Below, piece by piece: positions 1 to 46,267 of a DNA stretch of 64,000 bases. The notes beneath the pieces were generated by a model. That model was not told the DNA's origin. It was given only the letters and a program-made list of their open reading frames with translations, and searched no databases. The stretch is from a virus. Each line of letters begins with the position of its first letter. Within the stretch, counting starts at the first letter, position 1. The stretch lies in the IMG/VR virus record IMGVR_UViG_3300000228_000002, positions 32,001 to 96,000 of that record; one strand, written 5' to 3'. The position numbers and the translations under genes are program-made.

Positions 1-2523
1 GAACACATAGATAGAGTTAGTCTGAACATCTACTTGGTTCTTAACCAAAATACGATCACCATTGGCGAGGACAACCCCATCAATGTTGGCTGGCATTGAG
101 TTCACATCAATGTTGGCTGTAGTAGCTACTTTGACCTTTGCAGTATAGTTGTTGTTCAACTGAACATATGCATTAGTAAGACCAGGCAGAGTTCTTATAG
201 CAGTCTGAATCTGTGATAGCGTAGCATTGTATGCTATGTTGGCAGTAGAGTTGGCATTGTATGTGATCTGGAAAGTTCCAGAAATGGCTTCACTGTCAAA
301 TGCTATTGCTGCTGTCTTGGGTGGTATAGTCAGAACTTCGAGGCCAGCAATAATTAGAGAATCAGCAGAAGCTCCTGCAATTCTCATATTGATCGTAGTT
401 ACTTGGGTTGAATCCAACCCACCAACGATTTTGACTCTCTGAAATCTTTCACCAGAAATATAGGCAATGTTTGAGGAAGCAGTACCAGCCTGACTAACAC
501 TTATAGTGCTTACCGACTGTTCATTGTTGAGTGAAATAGCAAGATCTGGGGACCCTGGTGTAACCTTACACCATAGATACAATTCAGTGATGAAGTCCGT
601 TATTTGGATATCACCAGTGGAAGTGAGGAATACTACCTCAACTTCGCCTGTGTCGGAGTGTGCTCTTCTTACACACGAACCATAGAGAATTACTCTAGGG
701 TCGATTCTCTTTCCACCTTGAGATATACCAAAAGCTGGTCTACCCTCTGGTCTAGAGAACTCTTTTAATCGGAACAGATCATCAATCTTGATAACTTCAT
801 GTGCATGAGCTTTAAGCTCACTCATCAGAAGGTTTCTTGGATTGTTGTTAACTCTTGTAGATCCACCAGGAAGAATGTTGTCGTTAATTTGCGACGGTCT
901 CAAACCGGTGTCGATGTTGACTATTGATATAGAGTTTGCTGTTCTTGCAGTTACTCGATATTCGATGCCAAGACCATCAATGAAAATGTTCCCCACTTTA
1001 ACTAGGGTAGTAAGATCAGGGGCTCCAACATACGTTACTGTGCCTGTAGCTGCACTATAAGTGTACACATATGCATTGTTTTCGAAAGTGTACGTTAGTG
1101 GTACATCAATGTTCTTATCAAAAATTGGCCCAAGCTTAACGTCGTTCTGGAAATAATCATAATCTTCGTTAGTAGCTACGATAGTAGTGTTCTGGTTAGA
1201 ACCCAAGTAGCTAATCAAATCGTCGATGTCTTCTCTTAGTTCTTTGTTTGACTCGTCAGGATTCAGATAAGTATCAAAAGGTTTACCTTTGATGTTCTGA
1301 ATATGTTGAATTGCTTCACCCGATACGAAATCTGATGCAGGACCCTTCTTAGTATCAAACCCTTTGTCTATCGTTCCAAGAATTTTCTTAGCAGAGTACG
1401 ATACTCTTAATGAGGTGTCGATTGGTTGATCTGTGGTGATATAAAGGTTTCCACTGTAGAAACCGTCAGCATCAGCATCAATAGATGGATTAAGGATTTG
1501 GGTTTGAGCCGAGTCCTTATAGATTTGTACAAATCGTGGCCATTTGCCTGCCGAATTGTTGACATAACCTCTATCATAATTCAGGTCGAGAAGAGCAAAA
1601 TACGTAACTGCAGTACCTACTCCACCCTTACCTATATAAACTGGGTGAAGGAGACCAGTCAATTCAATACGACCACCACCAGCAAGGATGAGTAGTTGTG
1701 GTTCGGCTAACGGGTATTCTGTAGTTACAAACGGGTTCAATGCAGACGGTGTACCGTGTGAACCCTGGAGAGCATCCTTTTCATTTCCGTCAAGAAGTCT
1801 GGCTGTGTCTTGTTGAGTGACATATCTGTTAATAATACTAGGTGCACCTACCGAACCGATAGCAGCATCTTTCTGATCATCAGTTAAATGCTTCTCATCA
1901 ACATATAAATTGTTACGGTGCGATGACACTTCATTTTGAAGAGCCAGTGTGTTGGTAAGATTCAACCAAGTGACACCATTCCATGCATAAATCTCAACTA
2001 GACCACCAGCACCACCAATAATAAAGTGATCACCATCGCGATTGTGTTGAGCAGGAAGTTCCGCACTTGTTTGAAGATAGCCTCTGAAAGGGCTTCTTCC
2101 AAGTCTATCGAATGTGTCACGAATATCGTAAGTAATATTTGCAGAAGTGATGGCTAAATCGCCAATACCCAATGTAATGGTACCGAATACAACGTGATCG
2201 CCCTTGTCCAGGAGTGCATTAAAAGCACTGACCTCGTAAGTTCTGTACTCGATAATAGGCTGATCAGCCTGTATCCATTTTGCATATATAGTGAGAACTG
2301 TCGTCTGGTTCAGTGGGATAGCCTGAAACACGTGAGTCTGGGTGTCTTGAACTAGCAAACCTTCATCGGTCATTGCCGTGAAAGGCGTGACAGCTACATC
2401 TAGACCATTTGGTACTAGGAGTGCACCCTGAGTGATACCTTTCTTGAAAGTTACTGCAAATCTCTGGTTAAGGTCAGCTGTGGAATCGTTATTTAACCAT
2501 TTGAAAATCACATTTAATGCCAT
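1..2523 (-). CDS. Tail fibre/baseplate-associated protein, paralogue A (3' end runs off the window; absent from the ORF track)
   Basis: Hand translation from ATG 2523 gives MALNVIFKWLNNDSTADLNQRF...WNGVTWLNLTN...EKHLTDDQK...GSHGTPS, colinear with the 1302-aa ORF. The frame was spot-checked at the start, ~1.1 kb and 1-300. Near the window edge it carries the phage fibre motif VKVATTANID...IDGVVLANGDRILVKNQ. Confidence 0.85.
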   Translation of the reverse strand, partial: MALNVIFKWLNNDSTADLNQRFAVTFKKGITQGALLVPNGLDVAVTPFTAMTDEGLLVQDTQTHVFQAIPLNQTTVLTIYAKWIQADQPIIEYRTYEVSAFNALLDKGDHVVFGTITLGIGDLAITSANITYDIRDTFDRLGRSPFRGYLQTSAELPAQHNRDGDHFIIGGAGGLVEIYAWNGVTWLNLTNTLALQNEVSSHRNNLYVDEKHLTDDQKDAAIGSVGAPSIINRYVTQQDTARLLDGNEKDALQGSHGTPSALNPFVTTEYPLAEPQLLILAGGGRIELTGLLHPVYIGKGGVGTAVTYFALLDLNYDRGYVNNSAGKWPRFVQIYKDSAQTQILNPSIDADADGFYSGNLYITTDQPIDTSLRVSYSAKKILGTIDKGFDTKKGPASDFVSGEAIQHIQNIKGKPFDTYLNPDESNKELREDIDDLISYLGSNQNTTIVATNEDYDYFQNDVKLGPIFDKNIDVPLTYTFENNAYVYTYSAATGTVTYVGAPDLTTLVKVGNIFIDGLGIEYRVTARTANSISIVNIDTGLRPSQINDNILPGGSTRVNNNPRNLLMSELKAHAHEVIKIDDLFRLKEFSRPEGRPAFGISQGGKRIDPRVILYGSCVRRAHSDTGEVEVVFLTSTGDIQITDFITELYLWCKVTPGSPDLAISLNNEQSVSTISVSQAGTASSNIAYISGERFQRVKIVGGLDSTQVTTINMRIAGASADSLIIAGLEVLTIPPKTAAIAFDSEAISGTFQITYNANSTANIAYNATLSQIQTAIRTLPGLTNAYVQLNNNYTAKVKVATTANIDVNSMPANIDGVVLANGDRILVKNQVDVQTNSIYVF

Positions 2524-20355: not shown

Positions 20356-21819
20356 TTACTCCTCGACGATGATTATGTTTTCCTTTTTTACATTCTTGCC
20401 GGGAATTATAATAGATCCAACTTCAGTTGAGTTATATGCAAGACCAGTGGTAACCAATTCTTCTAACTCTCCCATCTTGCTATCTTCACCGAGTTCGTGC
20501 TTGATTTTAGCTAGCCTTTGGTGATTGTCTGCCAGGTACTTTGACACTATCCAAGCCCTGCCTTCGAATTCGAGCATTCTTAGCTTGCCTTCAAATTTAT
20601 CTGCAACACTTTTGTCAGATGTCCAGAATGAGTCATGGTTTTCTTCATCATGCTCAGATTTGCGATACACCGTACCTTGGTAATCTTCCAACATCCCTTC
20701 TGTCAGAAACCCCGTGAAGTTATCTGCCACAGCATATAAAAATGCCAAGTCTTTCTCTGTCACTCCGTAGCCCAACCACTTTGGTGGCCAGTCCGTGCCC
20801 TCGGCAGTAGCTAGTCTATCCTCTGTAAGTATGAAACCTCCACCTCTGGGCTCCCACCCCAAATCCTTGAACAATTTTCTCGAAATGTTGGTGATTGGTA
20901 CTGCTAGAAGGAACTCGTAGTCTTTATTTTTCGCTTTTTCTACCAGCATGTTTACTAGAGTCTTACCAATTCCTTTCTGATGATATTCTGGATCTACAAC
21001 GATTGATATCTCACCACCACCAGACTCACATGCTATCATGCCAATTGGTTTCCTACCATCAAGTGCAATAAACTCGTAATTCTGGTCGAACATTTCCATG
21101 TAGCTCTGTTCGATCAGGCTATCAAGATCATTAAGAATGTCCTCATCCCCTCTTTTCAGAGTTGATGCATCTTTGTAAGTTATCGTACTAGAAGCCACTA
21201 GATACCGATCAAAGTAGTCTTCCGGAGCTTCATCCATCATTTGTTCAAAGAGCTTAAGGTCCCGTTCGTCCTTCTTAGAAAGAAGTTCTATGATTCTTTC
21301 GTCCACCTCTTCAGGTTGATAATCTCTTTGAGCATCACGTGATCGATACTGATTCTCTTTAATCTCTAAGGCTTGCTTGAGATTTAACTTGCTCCCACCT
21401 TTAGATCCACTCTCCGATAATTCCTCTTTTGGTCGTCCAACTATAGCCCAAGCATCGTAAATGTTGTTCTCCAGGAGGCCAGAGGTTCTATGTGTTCCAT
21501 CCCAAACGTACCCCTTACCATCCTTCTCTATGATTACCAATGGGTCGTTTTTCTGGCTAAGTTCGTCGAGTGGGTACTCTTCCATGAAATACATGAGTCT
21601 TTCGTCGGCATCTTCTTCACCGAATTGACTAAGCCACGATTTGTATTCTGATTCAAGAAACTTGCGAAGATCCACTTTAAGATTTGGCAGGTCGTATTTT
21701 TCAAATGTGAAATCGTACTTGTCCACGTCTGCAGAGCTCTCATCAGTGGTCCATTGAGATTCGTATTCTCTGGCAATCTCTCTCATTTCATCTGAATTGT
21801 ATTGTGCTACTGACTTCAT
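20356..21819 (-). CDS. Multidomain acidic protein: ParB/Srx-like + GNAT acetyltransferase + ART-like C-terminus
   Basis: DPLVII...VWDGTHR (ParB-N), IVVDPEYHQKGIGKTL (GNAT motif A) and TVYRK...SFWTSDKSVADKF (ART-like R/S motifs). Confidence 0.65.
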   Translation of the reverse strand: MKSVAQYNSDEMREIAREYESQWTTDESSADVDKYDFTFEKYDLPNLKVDLRKFLESEYKSWLSQFGEEDADERLMYFMEEYPLDELSQKNDPLVIIEKDGKGYVWDGTHRTSGLLENNIYDAWAIVGRPKEELSESGSKGGSKLNLKQALEIKENQYRSRDAQRDYQPEEVDERIIELLSKKDERDLKLFEQMMDEAPEDYFDRYLVASSTITYKDASTLKRGDEDILNDLDSLIEQSYMEMFDQNYEFIALDGRKPIGMIACESGGGEISIVVDPEYHQKGIGKTLVNMLVEKAKNKDYEFLLAVPITNISRKLFKDLGWEPRGGGFILTEDRLATAEGTDWPPKWLGYGVTEKDLAFLYAVADNFTGFLTEGMLEDYQGTVYRKSEHDEENHDSFWTSDKSVADKFEGKLRMLEFEGRAWIVSKYLADNHQRLAKIKHELGEDSKMGELEELVTTGLAYNSTEVGSIIIPGKNVKKENIIIVEE

Positions 21820-27173: not shown

Positions 27174-28109
27174 CTAGTTCTTACTAGCCAACATTCCCAA
27201 ATAGGATTCAGTCACACTAGGGTATCTCAGTGATACCAGGTGCAAAAACCTCTGCTTCTGAGTGATCAGGAATATCAGTGAATTGGCTCTGTTAACTAGC
27301 ATATCCTGGTAGTTCTCTTTATTGAAGTAACCACCAAGAACAGTTGGATTATCACAGATTTGATCACATAGCATCCTGAGATAAGACTCATCAGTATTGA
27401 GAAGTTCCCAAGGGTTGGCAGTGCTTCCCTCTTTCGGATTGAAATACTCATGTATGATCGTTTGAGCGTTGGTGATGTTAACTGCCAGCTGCTGAATTGC
27501 TTGCGGATTCACCAGTCCAACCGATACTGCTTTAACAATATCTCTGGCATGCCCACCAGACGATAGGTATACTGAGATCATCATTTCTTCTGTGATTTCA
27601 GGATTCAAGAATTTCATCAGTGCAAAGGCTTCTGTCTCGGATAGAGTACGAACCTCAAGGGCTGTACATCTTGATCTGATGGTAGGGATAAGCTTCTGAA
27701 CATCAGTGGTACAGAAAATGAAGTAAATCCCTTCTTTCGGCTCCTCGATCACTTTAAGCAGACCCTCCTGGGCTTGCTTAGTCATTGAATGGAACTCATC
27801 GAGAATATAAACCTTGGCTGTACCAAAGCCTGCAAATAGTGTATCGTCTGCAATGGCTCGAACATCGTCGATACCATTGGTGTTAGCAGCATTGATTTCG
27901 TGAATGTCAGATGGGTTGCTGGCTAGAACGTTAGCAAGCATTCTGGCAAAAGTCGTCTTAGTACAACCATATGGACCATGAAATAGGAGTGCTTTAGGAA
28001 TATCAGTAGGATTGGACAACCATTTGTTGATAATTGGCTTCAGGTGTTCCTGGCCAAAAACCTCTGATAATTTCGATGGTCTAAATTCCTTACTCATCTG
28101 TAGCCCCAA
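27174..28109 (-). CDS. dnaX: Clamp-loader ATPase, DNA Pol III gamma/tau-like
   Basis: FRPSKLSEVFGQ, GPYGCTKTT, EINAA..GIDDVR, ILDEFH, LLKVIEEP, TIRSRC. Confidence 0.9.
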   Translation of the reverse strand: MGLQMSKEFRPSKLSEVFGQEHLKPIINKWLSNPTDIPKALLFHGPYGCTKTTFARMLANVLASNPSDIHEINAANTNGIDDVRAIADDTLFAGFGTAKVYILDEFHSMTKQAQEGLLKVIEEPKEGIYFIFCTTDVQKLIPTIRSRCTALEVRTLSETEAFALMKFLNPEITEEMMISVYLSSGGHARDIVKAVSVGLVNPQAIQQLAVNITNAQTIIHEYFNPKEGSTANPWELLNTDESYLRMLCDQICDNPTVLGGYFNKENYQDMLVNRANSLIFLITQKQRFLHLVSLRYPSVTESYLGMLASKN

Positions 28110-28650
28110 CCTTTTTTAACTTATCAACGTTCGGATACCCATCGCCGGTCCATAACCAATCGGCAAAATGAACTCTATCAACATTGTAGTGATTTTGGAA
28201 ATTCTTCTTGAAGTCTTCCATGTCGGAATAAACTCTGGCAAATTTACCATCTGCTTGTTGGCTCTTTCTACCATTATAAACATGCTCATTATTGGCTTTA
28301 TTGATCTGGCCCTTGGTGTAGAAACCAAGCTTTTCTGCAATGATGTATGTTATCCTTGGAACAGCCAATCTAGTTTCAACTTCATGTGCAACACCGGCTG
28401 AGAAAACATTCTTGGAAATGTAGAAAACTGCCAAGTCAGCGTTTAATAAGGCAAAATCGTTGACTCTCATCAAGTAATTGATTCCGACTTCGTTGTTCCC
28501 AATATTCTTAGCGTTTGTCCATGCTTTATCTGGTCTGAATATCAGAGATTCCTTGAATGAATCGGATTCTTCAAAGATTCTTGTCATTTCATCGAAAGCA
28601 TTAAGACTGGATGCCAGGTCAATTGCTGCACCTAAATATACTGAACTCAT
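28090..28650 (-). CDS. Nucleoside 2-deoxyribosyltransferase-like protein
   Basis: VYLGAAID...D..LLNAD...SAGVAHE pattern. Confidence 0.65.
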   Translation of the reverse strand: MSSVYLGAAIDLASSLNAFDEMTRIFEESDSFKESLIFRPDKAWTNAKNIGNNEVGINYLMRVNDFALLNADLAVFYISKNVFSAGVAHEVETRLAVPRITYIIAEKLGFYTKGQINKANNEHVYNGRKSQQADGKFARVYSDMEDFKKNFQNHYNVDRVHFADWLWTGDGYPNVDKLKKVGATDE

Positions 28651-31714: not shown

Positions 31715-32185
31715 ATTTTCTCCTCAATTAGTACGATTTTAACTGATTTAATATCTTTGGATGAGACCATTGTTCCAGATTTCTTATCGTAGTACGTCGA
31801 ACCAGGTGTAAGAATTCCTCTAGCTGCTCTCTCAGCTACGTCTATAGCTTTGATGAACTCCGGTATGACGTATTCATATACACCGAAACTTGACAATTCT
31901 CGTAATCTCTCGTATTCCCCATGCATGAATGCAGTTCGAGTGCGACAATGGTGGATAGCTGATGAACCATAACTTTCAGACTCTAAAGACTCAGTATCAG
32001 TAGCTACTACAAGTTTGTATTTTTCCTTATTTTCATCCAAGAACTTTTGTTCAGCCTCCTTGAGTGTCTATCTTCTCTGTAATTTCATCTACCATTCGAC
32101 GAAGCTCATCAATGCTAGGCTTAGACTGTGTTGGTTCAACAGTTGGTTGTTCACTTGTTAACCACTTGAAGAATTTGATTACCAC
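31711..32185 (-). pseudogene. Hypothetical gene with an apparent frameshift
   Basis: The GTG 32185 frame (...DEITEKI) joins TLKEAEQKFLDENKEKY with a 2-nt repair near 32065. Confidence 0.45.
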
Positions 32186-41590: not shown

Positions 41591-43006
41591 ATGCGAGACC
41601 AAATCATGTCCAAGACAGAGGTAGTTATAGAAGAGGATTTTGAAGATAATTGCATGGAAATTGCTGCAGACGAAAATCGCACGATTGTAGCCTCTCACCA
41701 AAATTGGGTGGGTCACCACCCTGCGGAAATCGCAGCTGCAAAGATTAAGAAAGCATCAGGTAACTCTGAAGATCAACTACTTCGTGATCTTCGAAAAGAC
41801 ATCTTCACTATACCACTTCTCAAACAAGAGGACTTGGTTCCATTGTTTCATCAATTGGATGGTATCATCACTGAGATAGTCAACAGAATTCTATCCTCAT
41901 CACTTACTATGAGAAGTAGAGTGGTTGACGTGATGGTCAAGGTAGCTGCAGGTAACACATATAACAAGAACATCTACGAAAAAGAAACATCAGCATTAAA
42001 CGAAAAAAGATCTAGTACATATAAAGACCACGAAATCGACTTCATGAATAGATGCTACGATTTCCTCAGAGAGGTTGGCAAGAAAGGCCTTCTCTCGGAA
42101 GAATTGGCTAAGCCCCAGTTCATCAGGGGTGTCTACGAAGAAATACTGGAAGAGTTCGTTGATATGACAAAAGACTATGTGTCAAATCATCACAGTGCAC
42201 TATATGCCAGATTATTGAACGATACCGACAAGCACTCCAAGCACCTTTCTAATTGCGTTGCCATTGAGAATAAACTGATGTTCAAAGATCAGTTGGGTTA
42301 TTCCCTAATCAGAGATGCAGAACAGGCTCATAAGAAATACATCGAAATCAGATCAGTCATCATAGCCCCATATCTTAGAGCAGTGTTTTCACTGGCCAAG
42401 AACCTAGGTAAAAACGTTCACCAGATTCTCGACAACTTCCAGAATGGCTCAATGGGATTGATACGTGCAGTATCTTGTTATTCTATTATTAAGCCAACCT
42501 CTTTCTCATCTGTTGCAAAATCCTGGATTAAGCAAATGATGCTTCTTTGTATCAAGGAAGAAGCCAATTTTGTGAAATTACCTATTGCAACATGGCAGTC
42601 ATTCACAGCTATGGAGAAAGTGCGACAGAAAGCAGGTTGTGAAATTGACGATTACGAATGCATAGCCAAGGCCAATAAAGCCACTCTCGACAAGGTGAAG
42701 TCTGTCTATGAGTCGGTAAAGATGTCACAAGTGTTCTCAATCAATAAGACATATGATCAGAACGAGAAATTGACTCTTGAGGATGTAATTCCAGATGAAA
42801 AAGAGTCTTCGGACGACGTGATTATAGGGGAGCTCCGAGAGTATATTGAGAAGGCTAATCTGAAATTGCAAGAGAAAAAGGTCATTGCCTTAACTCATGG
42901 AATTGCAGATATCATAGTTAGTAAAAGACTAAAAGAAGAAGATATAGAGAAAGAGAAGCTTGTGCAAGCAGCACGTAAAATAGGTTTCTCGTTATCTTAT
43001 CTTTAA
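41591..43006 (+). CDS. RpoD-like sigma factor with a degenerate region 4
   Basis: Region 1.2 IPLLKQED; region 2 YLRAVFSLAK...LDNFQNGSMGLIRAV...FSSVAKSWIKQ; region 3 SINK...LTLEDVIPD. Confidence 0.85.
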   Translation: MRDQIMSKTEVVIEEDFEDNCMEIAADENRTIVASHQNWVGHHPAEIAAAKIKKASGNSEDQLLRDLRKDIFTIPLLKQEDLVPLFHQLDGIITEIVNRILSSSLTMRSRVVDVMVKVAAGNTYNKNIYEKETSALNEKRSSTYKDHEIDFMNRCYDFLREVGKKGLLSEELAKPQFIRGVYEEILEEFVDMTKDYVSNHHSALYARLLNDTDKHSKHLSNCVAIENKLMFKDQLGYSLIRDAEQAHKKYIEIRSVIIAPYLRAVFSLAKNLGKNVHQILDNFQNGSMGLIRAVSCYSIIKPTSFSSVAKSWIKQMMLLCIKEEANFVKLPIATWQSFTAMEKVRQKAGCEIDDYECIAKANKATLDKVKSVYESVKMSQVFSINKTYDQNEKLTLEDVIPDEKESSDDVIIGELREYIEKANLKLQEKKVIALTHGIADIIVSKRLKEEDIEKEKLVQAARKIGFSLSYL

Positions 43007-43011
43007 TAAGC

Positions 43012-43109
43012 GGTATAGAAGCATAAATGGTATAATGGTATAAAATCGGTCAGAACAAAAACTGGCTGTTAACAACGGTATAGTGGTATAATTGGCATAT
43101 GGAGGTATA
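43012..43109 (+). promoter_or_regulatory. GGTATA repeat array in the SSB leader
   Basis: GGTATA at 43012, 43029, 43037, 43077, 43085 and 43104, plus GGCATA at 43094. The last copy overlaps the GGAGGT RBS; two copies form TGGTATAAT. Confidence 0.75.
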
Positions 43110-43111
43110 GT

Positions 43112-44119
43112 ATGCAAGGTATGATGGACAATCGTTACTCGAACATGGGCATTTCAGGCGGCGGATTCGCAAAAGAAGAACGCTGGGACTCAAAAATCCA
43201 ATGGTATGAATTAAAACCTGGCACTTGGAATCAAATCCGAATCTTCGGACCCGTATTCATCGTTGCTCAGAATTGGTTCACTACTCTGAAAGGCAAAAAA
43301 TTCGCTCTTTTCTCATTAGCATGGGATCCATTTGAGCGTTCTTACACAAAAACAGACAATGATCCTATTTGGCAATTCTTCGGAAACCCATTTGATCATG
43401 CAGACGAGAGAATCAAGGCAATTGCTCCTCGTCAACAAGCATATGTACAGGCGTTTATTCGCCCTACAGTAGGCATCCCACAAGGTGGAGATTATCGTCC
43501 ACTTCGTCTCCCTATTTCGGTGATCAACGGTATTCGTAAGGCTGCTGAGTTGAACTTCAAAATGGATGCTAACAATCAAGTGGTTATTGGACAAGATGGT
43601 AAGCCAGAAATTGCAGATCCTACTGATCCACAGTATGGTCTTGATGTACTAGTTTATTATGATCCAAGCAAAACCGGATCTGAGAAGTACTCTGTTCAAT
43701 TGGGCGGTAAATCACCGATCACTCAAGCAGAAGCAGCTTATCAGCCACACTTCATGGCTTGGCACGAAATTATCAAAATGCCTTCAGTAAACGAAGTGAA
43801 AGAAGCTCTCTCACGTAACGGTTACATGGCACTTGCTAACAATGCTGGAGCTAATTCATTCGGAAATGTTTCAGAAGTTGGCGGTTCTATGCCTGCTATG
43901 AATGTGGGAGCAGCACCTGCAGCTCCGGTAGCACCAGCAGTAGCACCAGGCCCAATGGCACCTCCTGCTCCTCAAAACATGACTCCTCCTGCACCAGCAG
44001 CACCTCCTGCTCCTCAAAACATGACTCCTCCTGCACCAGGCATGGGGGTGGGAATTGGTCCTGCACCAGTAGCTCCGACACCAACGGTACCAGCACCACC
44101 AGCACCGGGAAAGTATTAA
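43112..44119 (+). CDS. gp32-like single-stranded DNA-binding protein with a Pro/Ala-rich tail
   Basis: LKPG..QIRI.GP...DPI...Y.Q...DPTDPQYG.D...KYSV pattern; located upstream of RecA. Confidence 0.7.
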   Translation: MQGMMDNRYSNMGISGGGFAKEERWDSKIQWYELKPGTWNQIRIFGPVFIVAQNWFTTLKGKKFALFSLAWDPFERSYTKTDNDPIWQFFGNPFDHADERIKAIAPRQQAYVQAFIRPTVGIPQGGDYRPLRLPISVINGIRKAAELNFKMDANNQVVIGQDGKPEIADPTDPQYGLDVLVYYDPSKTGSEKYSVQLGGKSPITQAEAAYQPHFMAWHEIIKMPSVNEVKEALSRNGYMALANNAGANSFGNVSEVGGSMPAMNVGAAPAAPVAPAVAPGPMAPPAPQNMTPPAPAAPPAPQNMTPPAPGMGVGIGPAPVAPTPTVPAPPAPGKY

Positions 44120-44130
44120 CCCCTGGACTG

Positions 44131-44586
44131 ATGGCTCCACCGTCGGTACCTGTACAGGCTCCACAACAAACAACGGTTGCACCACCACAAATGGTGCAAC
44201 CTGTTCAACCAGTTGTAGAACCGATAGCTCAACCTGTTGCTAGCGCACCAGTAGCTCCTGCACCAGTAGCTCAACCTGTTGCAAGCGCACCAGTAGCTCC
44301 TGCACCAGTAGCTGTTCAGAATACGACACCAGATTCAGGGGAAGCACGGTTCAAGCTACCAGGAAAAACTGCCAAAGTTACTGCGGCAGAGTTTCAAATG
44401 GTAATTAATGAGTATGCCGAGAAATCTAAAAATACTAGTCCCAAGGTCGACAAATTCGTGTACCCCCTAAAAGCAGGTACAAAGGATTATGAAGGGGTTA
44501 ATGTATTTAGTTGTTTTGGCTCTTACAAGTCAGACGAGTACTGCATTAAATGCCCTCTCAGAAAGAACTGCATTATCAACAGATAG
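44131..44586 (+). CDS. Pro-rich linker + Cys4 domain; probable -1 frameshift extension of the SSB
   Basis: In the -1 frame from G GGA AAG (44107-44113); C-terminal CFG.Y....C..CP....C. Confidence 0.7.
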   Translation: MAPPSVPVQAPQQTTVAPPQMVQPVQPVVEPIAQPVASAPVAPAPVAQPVASAPVAPAPVAVQNTTPDSGEARFKLPGKTAKVTAAEFQMVINEYAEKSKNTSPKVDKFVYPLKAGTKDYEGVNVFSCFGSYKSDEYCIKCPLRKNCIINR

Positions 44587-44589
44587 AAG

Positions 44590-44883
44590 GTGCTAATGAA
44601 TCAGATAGGATTAGATCAGTATTTAGAGATCAAAGAAGATATCGAAGTAGGTGTGGTTGTATTTTTCTTAGAGGAGAAGTACAACCACCTCATTAGTGAG
44701 TCTCATTGGCTAAATTTCACTTCACTAGAAGTATATGCAGTTAAGATGAGTGCTGAAGATTTCAAGTCTATGGACATAGGTGTCCACCCAAAAACATTCA
44801 TCATTAAAGATGGCAAAGAAATTTTTGAAATTAATGGCATACCTTCTGAGGATGCTATAGGAGAGTTATATGGGTCTAAGTAG
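44590..44883 (+). CDS. Thioredoxin-fold protein lacking CxxC
   Basis: IGVHPKTFIIKDGKEIFEING C-terminal Trx motif. Confidence 0.55.
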   Translation: MLMNQIGLDQYLEIKEDIEVGVVVFFLEEKYNHLISESHWLNFTSLEVYAVKMSAEDFKSMDIGVHPKTFIIKDGKEIFEINGIPSEDAIGELYGSK

Positions 44884-46267
44884 TTTAGATAACATTTCAG
44901 ATTTACTAAGTGGAGCAGTTAAAGCAGCAGAGAAAGCTACTAAGCTAACATCTGTTTTCCAGAATAAGAGATTGGACGGAAAGCTAGTCCGATCGACTGG
45001 GTTACTATACCTAGACTACAAGATAGGTGGTGGTATTCCTTCAGGTAAGATCATCGGTATTTCGTCTGATGAACACATGGGTAAATCAGCCCTTATGGCA
45101 GAAATGACGTGGGAACAATTACAAGATGGTGGTCACACGGTGTATTTCGACGGGGAAGGTACACAAGATCCAATTTTCTTAGGGAAAAGAGGTATCGATT
45201 ATCAGTCATACCGTGGAAGAAGAAACAAAAATGGCGACCTTATTCCGGGCCAGAGAGATAAAGTGTGGTTCTATCAACCGCATACTGGCGATCAATTCAA
45301 AAAATACATTCACATGCTCTGTACTGCACTACCTGAGAACAGAGAATTACAAAAACCACCACTATTGTTCGGACTAGATTCGGCACTTTCTATCGTATCT
45401 GGTGATATTGCAGAAAATATTGATGGTAACAACACAGCAATGCATGCCAAAATGTATTCTGAGCTCCTACCCATCGTGAATGCGTCTCTACTTCGTTCGG
45501 GTGCTTCTCTGGTCTATACCAACCAACTTCGAGAAGATGTTGGTGCAGGTTTCAAAGGTATGGGGGACACAAAGTATGAACCAGGTGGTAAAGCACTAGG
45601 ATTCTTTGCTTCATGTCGTTTGCGCCTTCAGAAATCTAAAGCCAAGATGAATAACGGTATAGACGACCATCCTTTCCACGAAGAGTTCATCCCAGATATT
45701 AAGCCTAAAGCAGGCGGTGTATGGGAAGAAGGAACAACAATGGAGAAGGACAACAATCTTGATCGTTCCATTATTGTACAGTTCAAAACAATTAAGAACA
45801 AGTTCTTTACACCATTCAAAGTAGGTTACTACAGAATCGTTTTCGAATCTGCAGGTGAGACTGGTTATGGTTTCTGCCCAGTATTCGATGTGTTCTCTAC
45901 TCTTCTAGAAATGGGCCTTATTGTTAAGGCTAACAACAAGAAGACATATAAGCTGAACTTGGATGAGAAAACCAAAGAAATTGAAAAGTGGTTACCAGCA
46001 GTTTTCGATTACTACACACTTAAAGCGGCTATCCTAGCTCATGATAAGCGTGAATTAATTCAAGCTATTAGAAGAATCACTATTGAGTCTGGATGGGCTT
46101 ACGAAGGTGTAGCTGTTGAGGTTTCACCAGAGACAGAAGAATTCGATCCTGCTACTGGCGAAGTTTACGAAGTTCCTGCAGTGGCATTACCTGTTGGAGC
46201 ACCACCAGTTCCAGGAGCACCACCAGTTCCAGGCATGGGCATTATGAACAAAGGGAAAACCAAATGA
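44870..46267 (+). CDS. recA: RecA/UvsX recombinase
   Basis: STGLLYLD..IGGGIPSGKI, GKS, NQLRE, PGGKALGFFAS.RL, KNK...PFK. Confidence 0.92.
   Translation: MGLSSLDNISDLLSGAVKAAEKATKLTSVFQNKRLDGKLVRSTGLLYLDYKIGGGIPSGKIIGISSDEHMGKSALMAEMTWEQLQDGGHTVYFDGEGTQDPIFLGKRGIDYQSYRGRRNKNGDLIPGQRDKVWFYQPHTGDQFKKYIHMLCTALPENRELQKPPLLFGLDSALSIVSGDIAENIDGNNTAMHAKMYSELLPIVNASLLRSGASLVYTNQLREDVGAGFKGMGDTKYEPGGKALGFFASCRLRLQKSKAKMNNGIDDHPFHEEFIPDIKPKAGGVWEEGTTMEKDNNLDRSIIVQFKTIKNKFFTPFKVGYYRIVFESAGETGYGFCPVFDVFSTLLEMGLIVKANNKKTYKLNLDEKTKEIEKWLPAVFDYYTLKAAILAHDKRELIQAIRRITIESGWAYEGVAVEVSPETEEFDPATGEVYEVPAVALPVGAPPVPGAPPVPGMGIMNKGKTK

Follow-up and report, generated by a model that had tools for sequence, protein, structure and literature searches.

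A putative programmed -1 frameshift at the end of a gp32-type SSB gene of a large soil phage

The window analysed here, a stretch of 64,000 nucleotides (nt) covering positions 32,001 to 96,000 of the IMG/VR virus record IMGVR_UViG_3300000228_000002, contains a gene for a single-stranded DNA-binding protein (SSB) of 335 amino acids (aa), followed in the -1 frame by an open reading frame (ORF) of 151 aa that ends in a conserved four-cysteine (Cys4) domain. Here it is proposed that the two are probably connected by a lambda G/GT-type programmed -1 frameshift, through which some of the SSB molecules would gain the Cys4 domain together with the linker's second half. Frameshifting is favoured because relatives encode both parts as one fused ORF, the split is clade-wide, the slippery heptamers of two loci co-vary, predicted hairpins lie downstream of both, and the second ORF lacks a Shine-Dalgarno (SD) sequence. 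A short and a long SSB made by a programmed -1 frameshift had been suggested in an initial annotation made from the letters alone, and this suggestion is the best fit to the comparative data. The coordinates of the features are collected in Table 1.

The two reading frames and their relatives

The SSB ORF consists of a core (about residues 20-247) and about 85 residues of Pro/Ala-rich linker (about 250 to 335). No Pfam family matched it at E≤0.01, and the sole match was a partial one to PHROG 15004, "single strand DNA binding protein" (E 2.1e-10, 80 residues), so membership of the gp32 family was not found at the sequence level; a PDB sequence profile search gave low-complexity noise only. The AlphaFold model of residues 1-250 (22-row alignment) had a pLDDT of 85.9, and all six of its Foldseek matches at E≤0.001 were to the RB69/T4 gp32 core with a probability of 1.00, the best structures being 2a1k_B (E 1.7e-8, TM 0.53/0.62) and 1gpc (E 8.2e-8), in a TM range of 0.5-0.66. 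Because the model has no other matches at this threshold, the ORF is assigned to the T4 gp32-type SSBs by its modelled core fold, and binding of single-stranded DNA is predicted.

The 151-aa ORF begins with about 65 residues rich in Pro, Ala, Val and Gln, continuing the Pro/Ala linker of the SSB as the initial annotation had described it, and finishes with the conserved domain of 87 aa. The cysteines are C128, C138, C141 and C147 (codons 44512-14, 44542-44, 44551-53 and 44569-71), which correspond to C64, C74, C77 and C83 in domain numbering and are invariant in 14/14 and in 34/34 aligned relatives. The domain alignment has 24 invariant columns among 14 sequences, down to 46% identity. The window copy of the domain matched no Pfam or PHROG family, any weak Pfam match being common to at most 2 of the 34 members, and gave no usable ESM Atlas match. 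Its model had a pLDDT of 67, with the Cys region below 50, and found no Foldseek PDB match at E≤0.001, with a best VIA-align Z of 2.7; lacking matches to such a model do not show that the fold is new. The search of the domain against PDB profiles returned E-values of 1.2 and 6.1 over 13-14 residues only, and in HMMER YCIKCPLRKNC aligned to WhiB7 LCVSCPIRRQCLA over 13 residues at a non-significant E of 1.2. The spacing C-x9-C-x2-C-x5-C agrees with the C-Xn-C-X2-C-X5-C of WhiB-like and EndoIII-MutY 4Fe-4S motifs, and no membership is claimed from it. The four cysteines are predicted to form a probable metal site (Zn or Fe-S).

A full HMMER scan with the 151-aa ORF over 1.84 billion representatives returned 25 matches. 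In nine of them, a single ORF of 360-474 aa carries the Cys4 domain at its C-terminus, another 13 are short domain-only proteins (61-159 aa), and the last three match the low-complexity linker only. The N-terminal parts of the nine long proteins align with the window SSB core (P0037 without its beginning), and their middles are Pro/Gln/Ala linkers of 100-200 residues. Similarly, the IMG/VR loci L007 (535 aa) and L008 (475 aa) encode SSB, linker and Cys4 domain in one ORF, and both have the same gene order as the window, namely sigma factor, SSB, a small ORF with the motif DIGVHPKT and a RecA-like gene. These two come from L007-L010, which were located in IMG/VR with a narrow alignment and of which only L007 and L008 were used. 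By these alignments, the protein that relatives encode in a single ORF is divided between two ORFs in the window.

A word-indexed search found 11 further SSBs of 316-340 aa with 54-85% identity to that of the window and, with lengths of up to 587 aa in reach, no fused SSB at this identity. A tree built from 25 core sequences places the 12 split SSBs (the window included) in one clade with an SH-aLRT of 100 and the 10 fused forms in two groups apart from it, with the phiRSL1-like SSBs as outgroup; L002 (a locus described below, identical to P0008 except at the start), L009, L010 and P0037 (incomplete) were left out. The short domain ORF has 12 homologous clusters of 109-149 aa, four of which share their longest-contig size with an SSB cluster (12398, 15388, 34369 and 3291). 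A scan of JGI metagenome contigs gave one locus, L002. Scans of IMG/VR with the SSB, the 151-aa ORF and three alignments gave no close relatives, in a set that possibly does not hold the window's own record; also, none were found in GTDB genome contigs with two alignments, and in the phage GenBank set blastn gave no match and tblastn of the 151-aa ORF nothing meaningful (E 6).

The core of gp32 includes a zinc-binding Cys/His subdomain. The fused relatives have Cys in the SSB core at alignment columns of about 95-116 (e.g. ...C..YD..., ...CPVC...), which the split clade, the window included, has lost. By eye, the window and L002 have no Cys at these columns, and the Zn-type subdomain was thus not found in them. 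The clade with the split gene may thus have lost a zinc site like that of gp32.

The slippery junction

The 3' end of the SSB ORF reads CCG (44105-07) GGA (44108-10) AAG (44111-13) TAT (44114-16) TAA (44117-19) in the 0-frame. This ending had been given in the initial annotation and is read directly from the sequence; the phase of the heptamer was verified against the stop, and the -1 reading GTA TTA ACC CCT GGA CTG ATG into the 44131 ORF was likewise found to run without a stop. The -1 frame stays open over 43855-44586, 243 codons in total, 92 of them upstream of the ATG at 44131, and G GGA AAG is the sole in-phase XXXYYYZ within this 92-codon stretch. As a chance background, 50 in-phase XXXYYYZ, seven of them X XXA AAG, occur in the 18,052 codons of 59 crude window ORFs, and from the codon usage of the phage (CCG 0.12, GGA 0.25, AAG 0.45) Pro-Gly-Lys is expected to be written as CCG GGA AAG with a frequency of 0.0135. 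No Rfam family, frameshift elements included, matches the region.

The second junction for which DNA is available is that of L002, a diverged relative (60% identity) whose SSB ORF (357..1373) ends GCC CCA AAG TAA. Here the heptamer is C CCA AAG, in phase at 1364-1370, with TAA directly after it, and the domain ORF (1373..1717) lies in the -1 frame with an ATG that overlaps the stop (TAATG). As in the window, this is the single heptamer within the open -1 stretch of the locus. The junctions of the window and L002 align without gaps (...GGGAAAGTATTAACCCCTG... / ...CCCAAAGTAATGACCCCTG...), and none of the three X bases is common to the two loci, but within each locus the three are identical, which meets the need of the P-site tRNA to re-pair. 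Both the position of the site and its slipperiness are thus kept in the two loci with DNA. Additionally, VLTPGL of the window corresponds to VMTPEP inside the called ORF of L002, the nucleotides GTAWTRACCCCTG being common to both; therefore, the homologous coding sequence begins upstream of the window ATG, where there is no start codon.

The most efficient motifs reported for E. coli are C_CC.A_AA.G, G_GG.A_AA.G and A_AA.A_AA.G, with up to 54% frameshifting when combined with a pseudoknot (PMC4066793). The heptamers of the window and L002 are two of these three best bacterial -1 motifs (PMC4066793, PMC5009743).

At the protein level, all 12 split SSBs have Lys as the last or next to last residue (PGKY in 2, PGKI in 3, PK in 6 and PVK in 1), in a linker that is otherwise nearly Lys-free and poorly conserved. 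The initial annotation had asked whether homologues keep a slippery heptamer plus stop at this position: C CCA AAG TAA in L002 and the Lys end in 12/12 agree with it, and the PVK ending of P0011 does not.

The hairpin that the initial annotation had placed after the site is present as a prediction. In the window, bases G12-G21, counted from the base after the heptamer, pair with C27-C37 (-12.7 kcal/mol), and in L002 the predicted hairpin has 11 bp and -18.0 kcal/mol, its 5' arm starting at the same 12th base. Nine of the ten 5'-arm positions pair in both loci, with two compensatory pairs (G-C to A-U and A-U to G-C) and one further pair changed on one side. Among local in-frame 40-nt windows, the hairpins rank in the best 1.6% in the window (n=1537, 41591-46200) and in the best 0.7% in L002 (n=598), and that of L002 stands out against shuffles (z -4.2). 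Further downstream, about 60 nt past the heptamer in the linker-coding part of the -1 ORF, the window has a perfect 10-bp inverted repeat (GGTTGCACCA ... TGGTGCAACC, 44174-44201), which accounts for most of the z of -3.1 of a 102-nt fold; a second, more distal hairpin is present in L002 as well.

The second ORF has no usable SD in either locus, with an anti-SD duplex of -3.0 kcal/mol in the window, in line with the weak ribosome-binding site of the initial annotation, and of -1.5/-1.9 kcal/mol in L002. For the neighbouring genes of the window, the values are -10.6 (SSB, GGAGG), -7.3 (RecA-like) and -4.6 kcal/mol (Trx-like ORF). No sigma-70-like promoter or + strand terminator was found between the SSB and 151-aa ORFs.

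Under the proposed mechanism, most ribosomes would read 43112-44119 and stop at the TAA, giving the 335-aa SSB with its core and half of the Pro/Ala linker. Some would slip back by one base on G GGA AAG, the tRNA-Gly moving from GGA to GGG and the tRNA-Lys from AAG to AAA, would miss the stop and would continue through VLTPGL into the 44131 ORF. The long product would have 334 + 6 + 151, or about 491 aa, and would include the remaining linker and the 87-aa four-cysteine domain; this length is within the size range of the fused relatives. Both the adjacent stop and the hairpin, 11 nt further on, probably make the slip more frequent. What is observed is the anatomy of the junction, its conservation and the fused architecture of relatives; the occurrence of the slip, its rate and the role of the Cys4 domain are inferred.

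Alternatives and comparable systems

Several points weigh against a programmed frameshift. Such heptamers reach about 0.3% frameshifting in E. coli when no stimulator is present (PMC4066793). The window hairpin is unremarkable against shuffles of its own G+C-rich 62 nt (z -0.92; 34/200 fold as well), and its 11-nt spacer is longer than the usual stimulator distance of 5-9 nt, stimulators at 12-15 nt being also known (PMC5009743). By eye, no SD-like stimulator was seen upstream of the heptamer in the window and L002. The slippery site is suggested by two independent DNA junctions only (window and L002), and in P0011, ending PVK, the Val codon would leave no X XXA AAG and at best an A AAG tetramer. 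Furthermore, the spacing of stop and ATG in the two loci permits termination-reinitiation, and the 13 short domain matches among 25 may point to a function as a free protein, or else to further splits or contig fragments.

The last two points are also those on which an unlikely, although the most serious, alternative is built: gene fission, in which a 1-nt deletion in the linker split a fused gene, the Cys4 protein is made by termination-reinitiation and any frameshifting is incidental. Closely spaced or overlapping stop and start codons are the classic arrangement of translational coupling, and they are found here 12 nt apart in the window and as TAATG in L002. Public gene calls give the domain as an ORF of its own in 12 clusters, in addition to the 13 short domain-only proteins, and the hairpin encloses the ATG in both loci and could serve coupling instead of slippage; the free Cys4 domain might then bind the SSB non-covalently. 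However, fission does not account for heptamers in phase at the SSB end that are two of the best three bacterial -1 motifs and have co-varying X bases, for the terminal Lys kept by 12/12 members in an otherwise Lys-free and poorly conserved linker, for the failure of the second ORF to evolve an SD or for the match of the -1 codons before the window ATG to coding residues of L002. There is also no obvious rationale for a free protein that opens with 40-65 residues of Pro/Ala linker. Frameshifting and reinitiation could both operate.

The -1 frame being open for 92 codons upstream of the ATG, any single-base indel there would look alike, which is what could be said for a 1-nt assembly or sequencing deletion, or for a recent inactivating mutation that left the Cys4 part unexpressed. 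The initial annotation had called for a check of such a deletion, and for this Logan contigs of four runs were compared over 43100-44900. Two runs, possibly of the source sample, span 44010-44254 or more free of differences and gaps, at depths of 31 and 26. The relative in run X4, on one 3614-nt contig that extends across the entire region and has 105 substitutions, differs in length only by +1+1+1 at 44013-44020 and -27 at 44238, and that in run X5 has +1, +2 and +6, upstream only (+9 in total, in-frame). No indel occurs at 44100-44131 in any of the four runs, the comparison of X4 and X5 at the site covering indels only, and because of this an assembly error is excluded. The two diverged relatives have in-frame indels elsewhere only, all 12 members of the clade stop at the same place, and 24 invariant columns among 14 domain sequences down to 46% identity would be unexpected in a dead gene, so that an artefact or dead gene is hardly credible. 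Some short, low-depth X4 and X5 contigs agree with the Pro/Ala-coding stretch over 34-40 nt and diverge from it at 44103-44108; these were taken as other Pro/Ala-coding sequences. The same 92-codon stretch makes it geometrically possible that the frame changes at another overlap site or by transcriptional slippage rather than by ribosomes on the heptamer, which is very improbable as well. Transcriptional slippage needs long A or T runs, and the overlap has homopolymer runs of at most A3/G3 at the junction; no further in-phase heptamer exists in the overlap of either locus. Programmed frameshifting on the heptamer thus keeps its place as the probable reading.

The length of the linker varies between strains, as the near relative in run X4 lacks 27 nt at 44238. 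The relative P0015 has 142 aa versus the 151 aa of the window ORF. Each half of the Pro/Ala linker holds its own 42-nt tandem duplication (43958-44039; 44225-44313), and contig depth is doubled across the one in the SSB.

E. coli dnaX yields its two isoforms, tau and gamma, by a -1 shift on an X XXA AAG heptamer that has an SD-like stimulator upstream and, after a spacer of 6 nt, a 3' hairpin; a ribosome that has shifted meets a stop soon afterwards, and the frameshift product is the shorter one. Like dnaX, the locus described here would give two forms of a replication protein, one carrying C-terminal interaction domains and one lacking them, as proposed in the initial annotation. The analogy does not extend to the product, as the shift would give the longer form here, nor to the signal, with no upstream SD-like element seen and an 11-nt spacer, so that lambda G/GT is the closer model. 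dnaX is cited as a -1 site in the PRFect paper and in a 2025 preprint.

In lambda, the G/GT slippery sequence is GGGAAAG, as the initial annotation had stated, with Gly-Lys in both frames and the gpG stop directly downstream, and about 4% of ribosomes shift (Table 1 and text of PMC3296357), i.e. a fixed ratio of about 96:4 (PMC3296357). The SSB junction has the same heptamer, Gly-Lys in both frames and a stop right behind it, and its frameshift product would likewise be the longer one, with an extra C-terminal domain. The lambda proteins differ in being tail chaperones for virion assembly, whereas here it is a gp32-type SSB of replication and recombination, and both loci here have a downstream hairpin. 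The IS3/IS911 OrfA-OrfAB systems are alike in fusing overlapping -1 ORFs with an X XXA AAG-type motif and a 3' structure, and differ in encoding the transposase of a mobile element, in a longer ORF overlap and in stimulators that are pseudoknots or three-way junctions (PMC4066793).

Among SSBs, T4/RB69 gp32 shares the predicted core fold, the adjoining RecA/UvsX-like recombinase gene and the logic of a core plus a C-terminal interaction region, and differs by its low identity (13-15%). The C-terminus of gp32 is an acidic tail, in place of which the proteins described here have the Pro/Ala linker with or without the Cys4 domain. As a guess, the Cys4 domain would be a metal-bound, partner-recruiting module standing in for the acidic interaction tail of gp32 and of bacterial SSBs. 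The SSBs of the phiRSL1-, Motura- and PhiXhv-like jumbo phages have homologous cores (24-27% identity, E 1e-6 to 3e-9), and phiRSL1, Motura and PhiXhv-12 also share the sigma factor, SSB and RecA order; they differ in being single ORFs of 475-504 aa with long acidic/basic low-complexity tails and no frameshift. A Cys4 domain was considered for these long single-ORF SSBs and is absent from their tails. The SSB of Achromobacter phage Motura (L003, 1884-3398) has a tail of about 250 residues with alternating acidic and Lys-rich runs and ends in DDDIPF, the tip motif of bacterial SSBs. Vibrio phage vB_VcorM_GR11A (L006, 2010-3761) has an SSB homologue of 339 aa and, 78 nt behind it, a separate ORF that is acidic and is annotated as 217 aa; this arrangement may be an unrelated way to separate core and tail.

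No frameshifting SSB was found in the literature searched, which included the PRFect paper, the 2025 preprint and part of PMC5009743, subscription-only papers and supplements lying outside it; this agrees with the initial annotation, which knew of no described phage case. The proposed mechanism is a textbook one, and the SSB is new as its gene. Conserved -1 frameshifts are few in phage genes apart from tail chaperones, capsid genes and transposases. If the proposal is true, phages tune the number of SSB molecules that carry a partner-binding domain, combining the logic of dnaX tau/gamma with the signal of lambda G/GT. For annotation, the 151-aa "hypothetical protein" and its relatives would become the C-terminal part of an SSB. 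A four-cysteine domain without an earlier name is defined as well; it forms the end of the SSB in a wide group of large soil phages and is uncharacterised as far as the searched libraries show. Additionally, the two co-varying heptamers with an adjacent stop and a hairpin at the unusual distance of 11 nt would make a compact natural cassette for studying how stop codons and distant hairpins stimulate slippage.

The 2-thiolation of tRNA-Lys(UUU) competes with Fe-S assembly for sulfur and alters frameshifting on the lambda GGGAAAG (PMC3296357). It is conceivable, if improbable, that the Cys4 domain is a 4Fe-4S module and that a slip involving this tRNA couples the share of Fe-S-bearing SSB to the sulfur and Fe-S status of the host; if true, the composition of a replication protein would be a read-out of host physiology.

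The phage and the gene neighbourhood

The virus record to which the window belongs has 122 kb and an estimated completeness of 49%, and by these two figures the source, a soil phage, is of jumbo size. Its G+C content is 41%, and the 122 kb encode tRNAs for Ile and Met only, with no tRNA-Lys. The SSB gene is flanked by a sigma-factor-like gene upstream and, downstream, by the small ORF and then the RecA/UvsX-like gene.

Table 1. Coordinates of the features of the SSB locus (window positions unless a locus is named)
Feature	Coordinates	Strand	Remarks
SSB 0-frame ORF, 335 aa, proposed short isoform	43112..44119	+	ends ...PAPGKY
Perfect 42-nt (14-codon) tandem duplication in SSB linker	43958..44039	+	Tandem Repeats Finder, 2.0 copies, 100% match
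Slippery heptamer G GGA AAG, in-phase X XXY YYZ, proposed -1 site	44107..44113	+	Gly-Lys in both frames
Six -1-frame bridge codons GTA TTA ACC CCT GGA CTG (VLTPGL)	44113..44130	+	no stop, no ATG/GTG/TTG
0-frame stop TAA	44117..44119	+	one sense codon past the heptamer
Predicted hairpin, 10 bp, one bulge, loop CUCCA, candidate 3' stimulator	44125..44150	+	11 nt past the heptamer
-1-frame ORF, 151 aa, proposed C-terminal part of the long isoform	44131..44586	+	from the ORF list; weak SD
42-nt tandem duplication in linker of -1 ORF	44225..44313	+	Tandem Repeats Finder, 2.1 copies, 97% match
Cys4 C-terminal domain, 87 aa, C-x9-C-x2-C-x5-C	44323..44583	+	invariant Cys across relatives
Small DIGVHPKT (Trx-like) ORF	window 44596-44883 (or GTG start 44590); L002 1720-2016; L007 4479-4973; L008 4323-4667		
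RecA/UvsX-like gene	window 44870-46267; L008 4774-6222		

The small ORF with the DIGVHPKT motif, which always separates the SSB/Cys4 gene from the RecA-like gene, had no Pfam or PHROG match and, by eye, presumably resembles a thioredoxin fold without the CXXC site. The RecA/UvsX-like proteins have Pro-rich C-terminal tails (PVGAPPVPGAPPVPG... in the window and PLPPLPPPILATPPP... in L008), similar to the SSB linker. Elsewhere in the window, the heptamer A AAA AAG occurs in phase near the end of two ORFs on the - strand, 8 codons before the stop in 20356-21819, with a -1 continuation of 61 aa, and 6 codons before the stop in 28090-28650, with a -1 continuation of only 7 aa.

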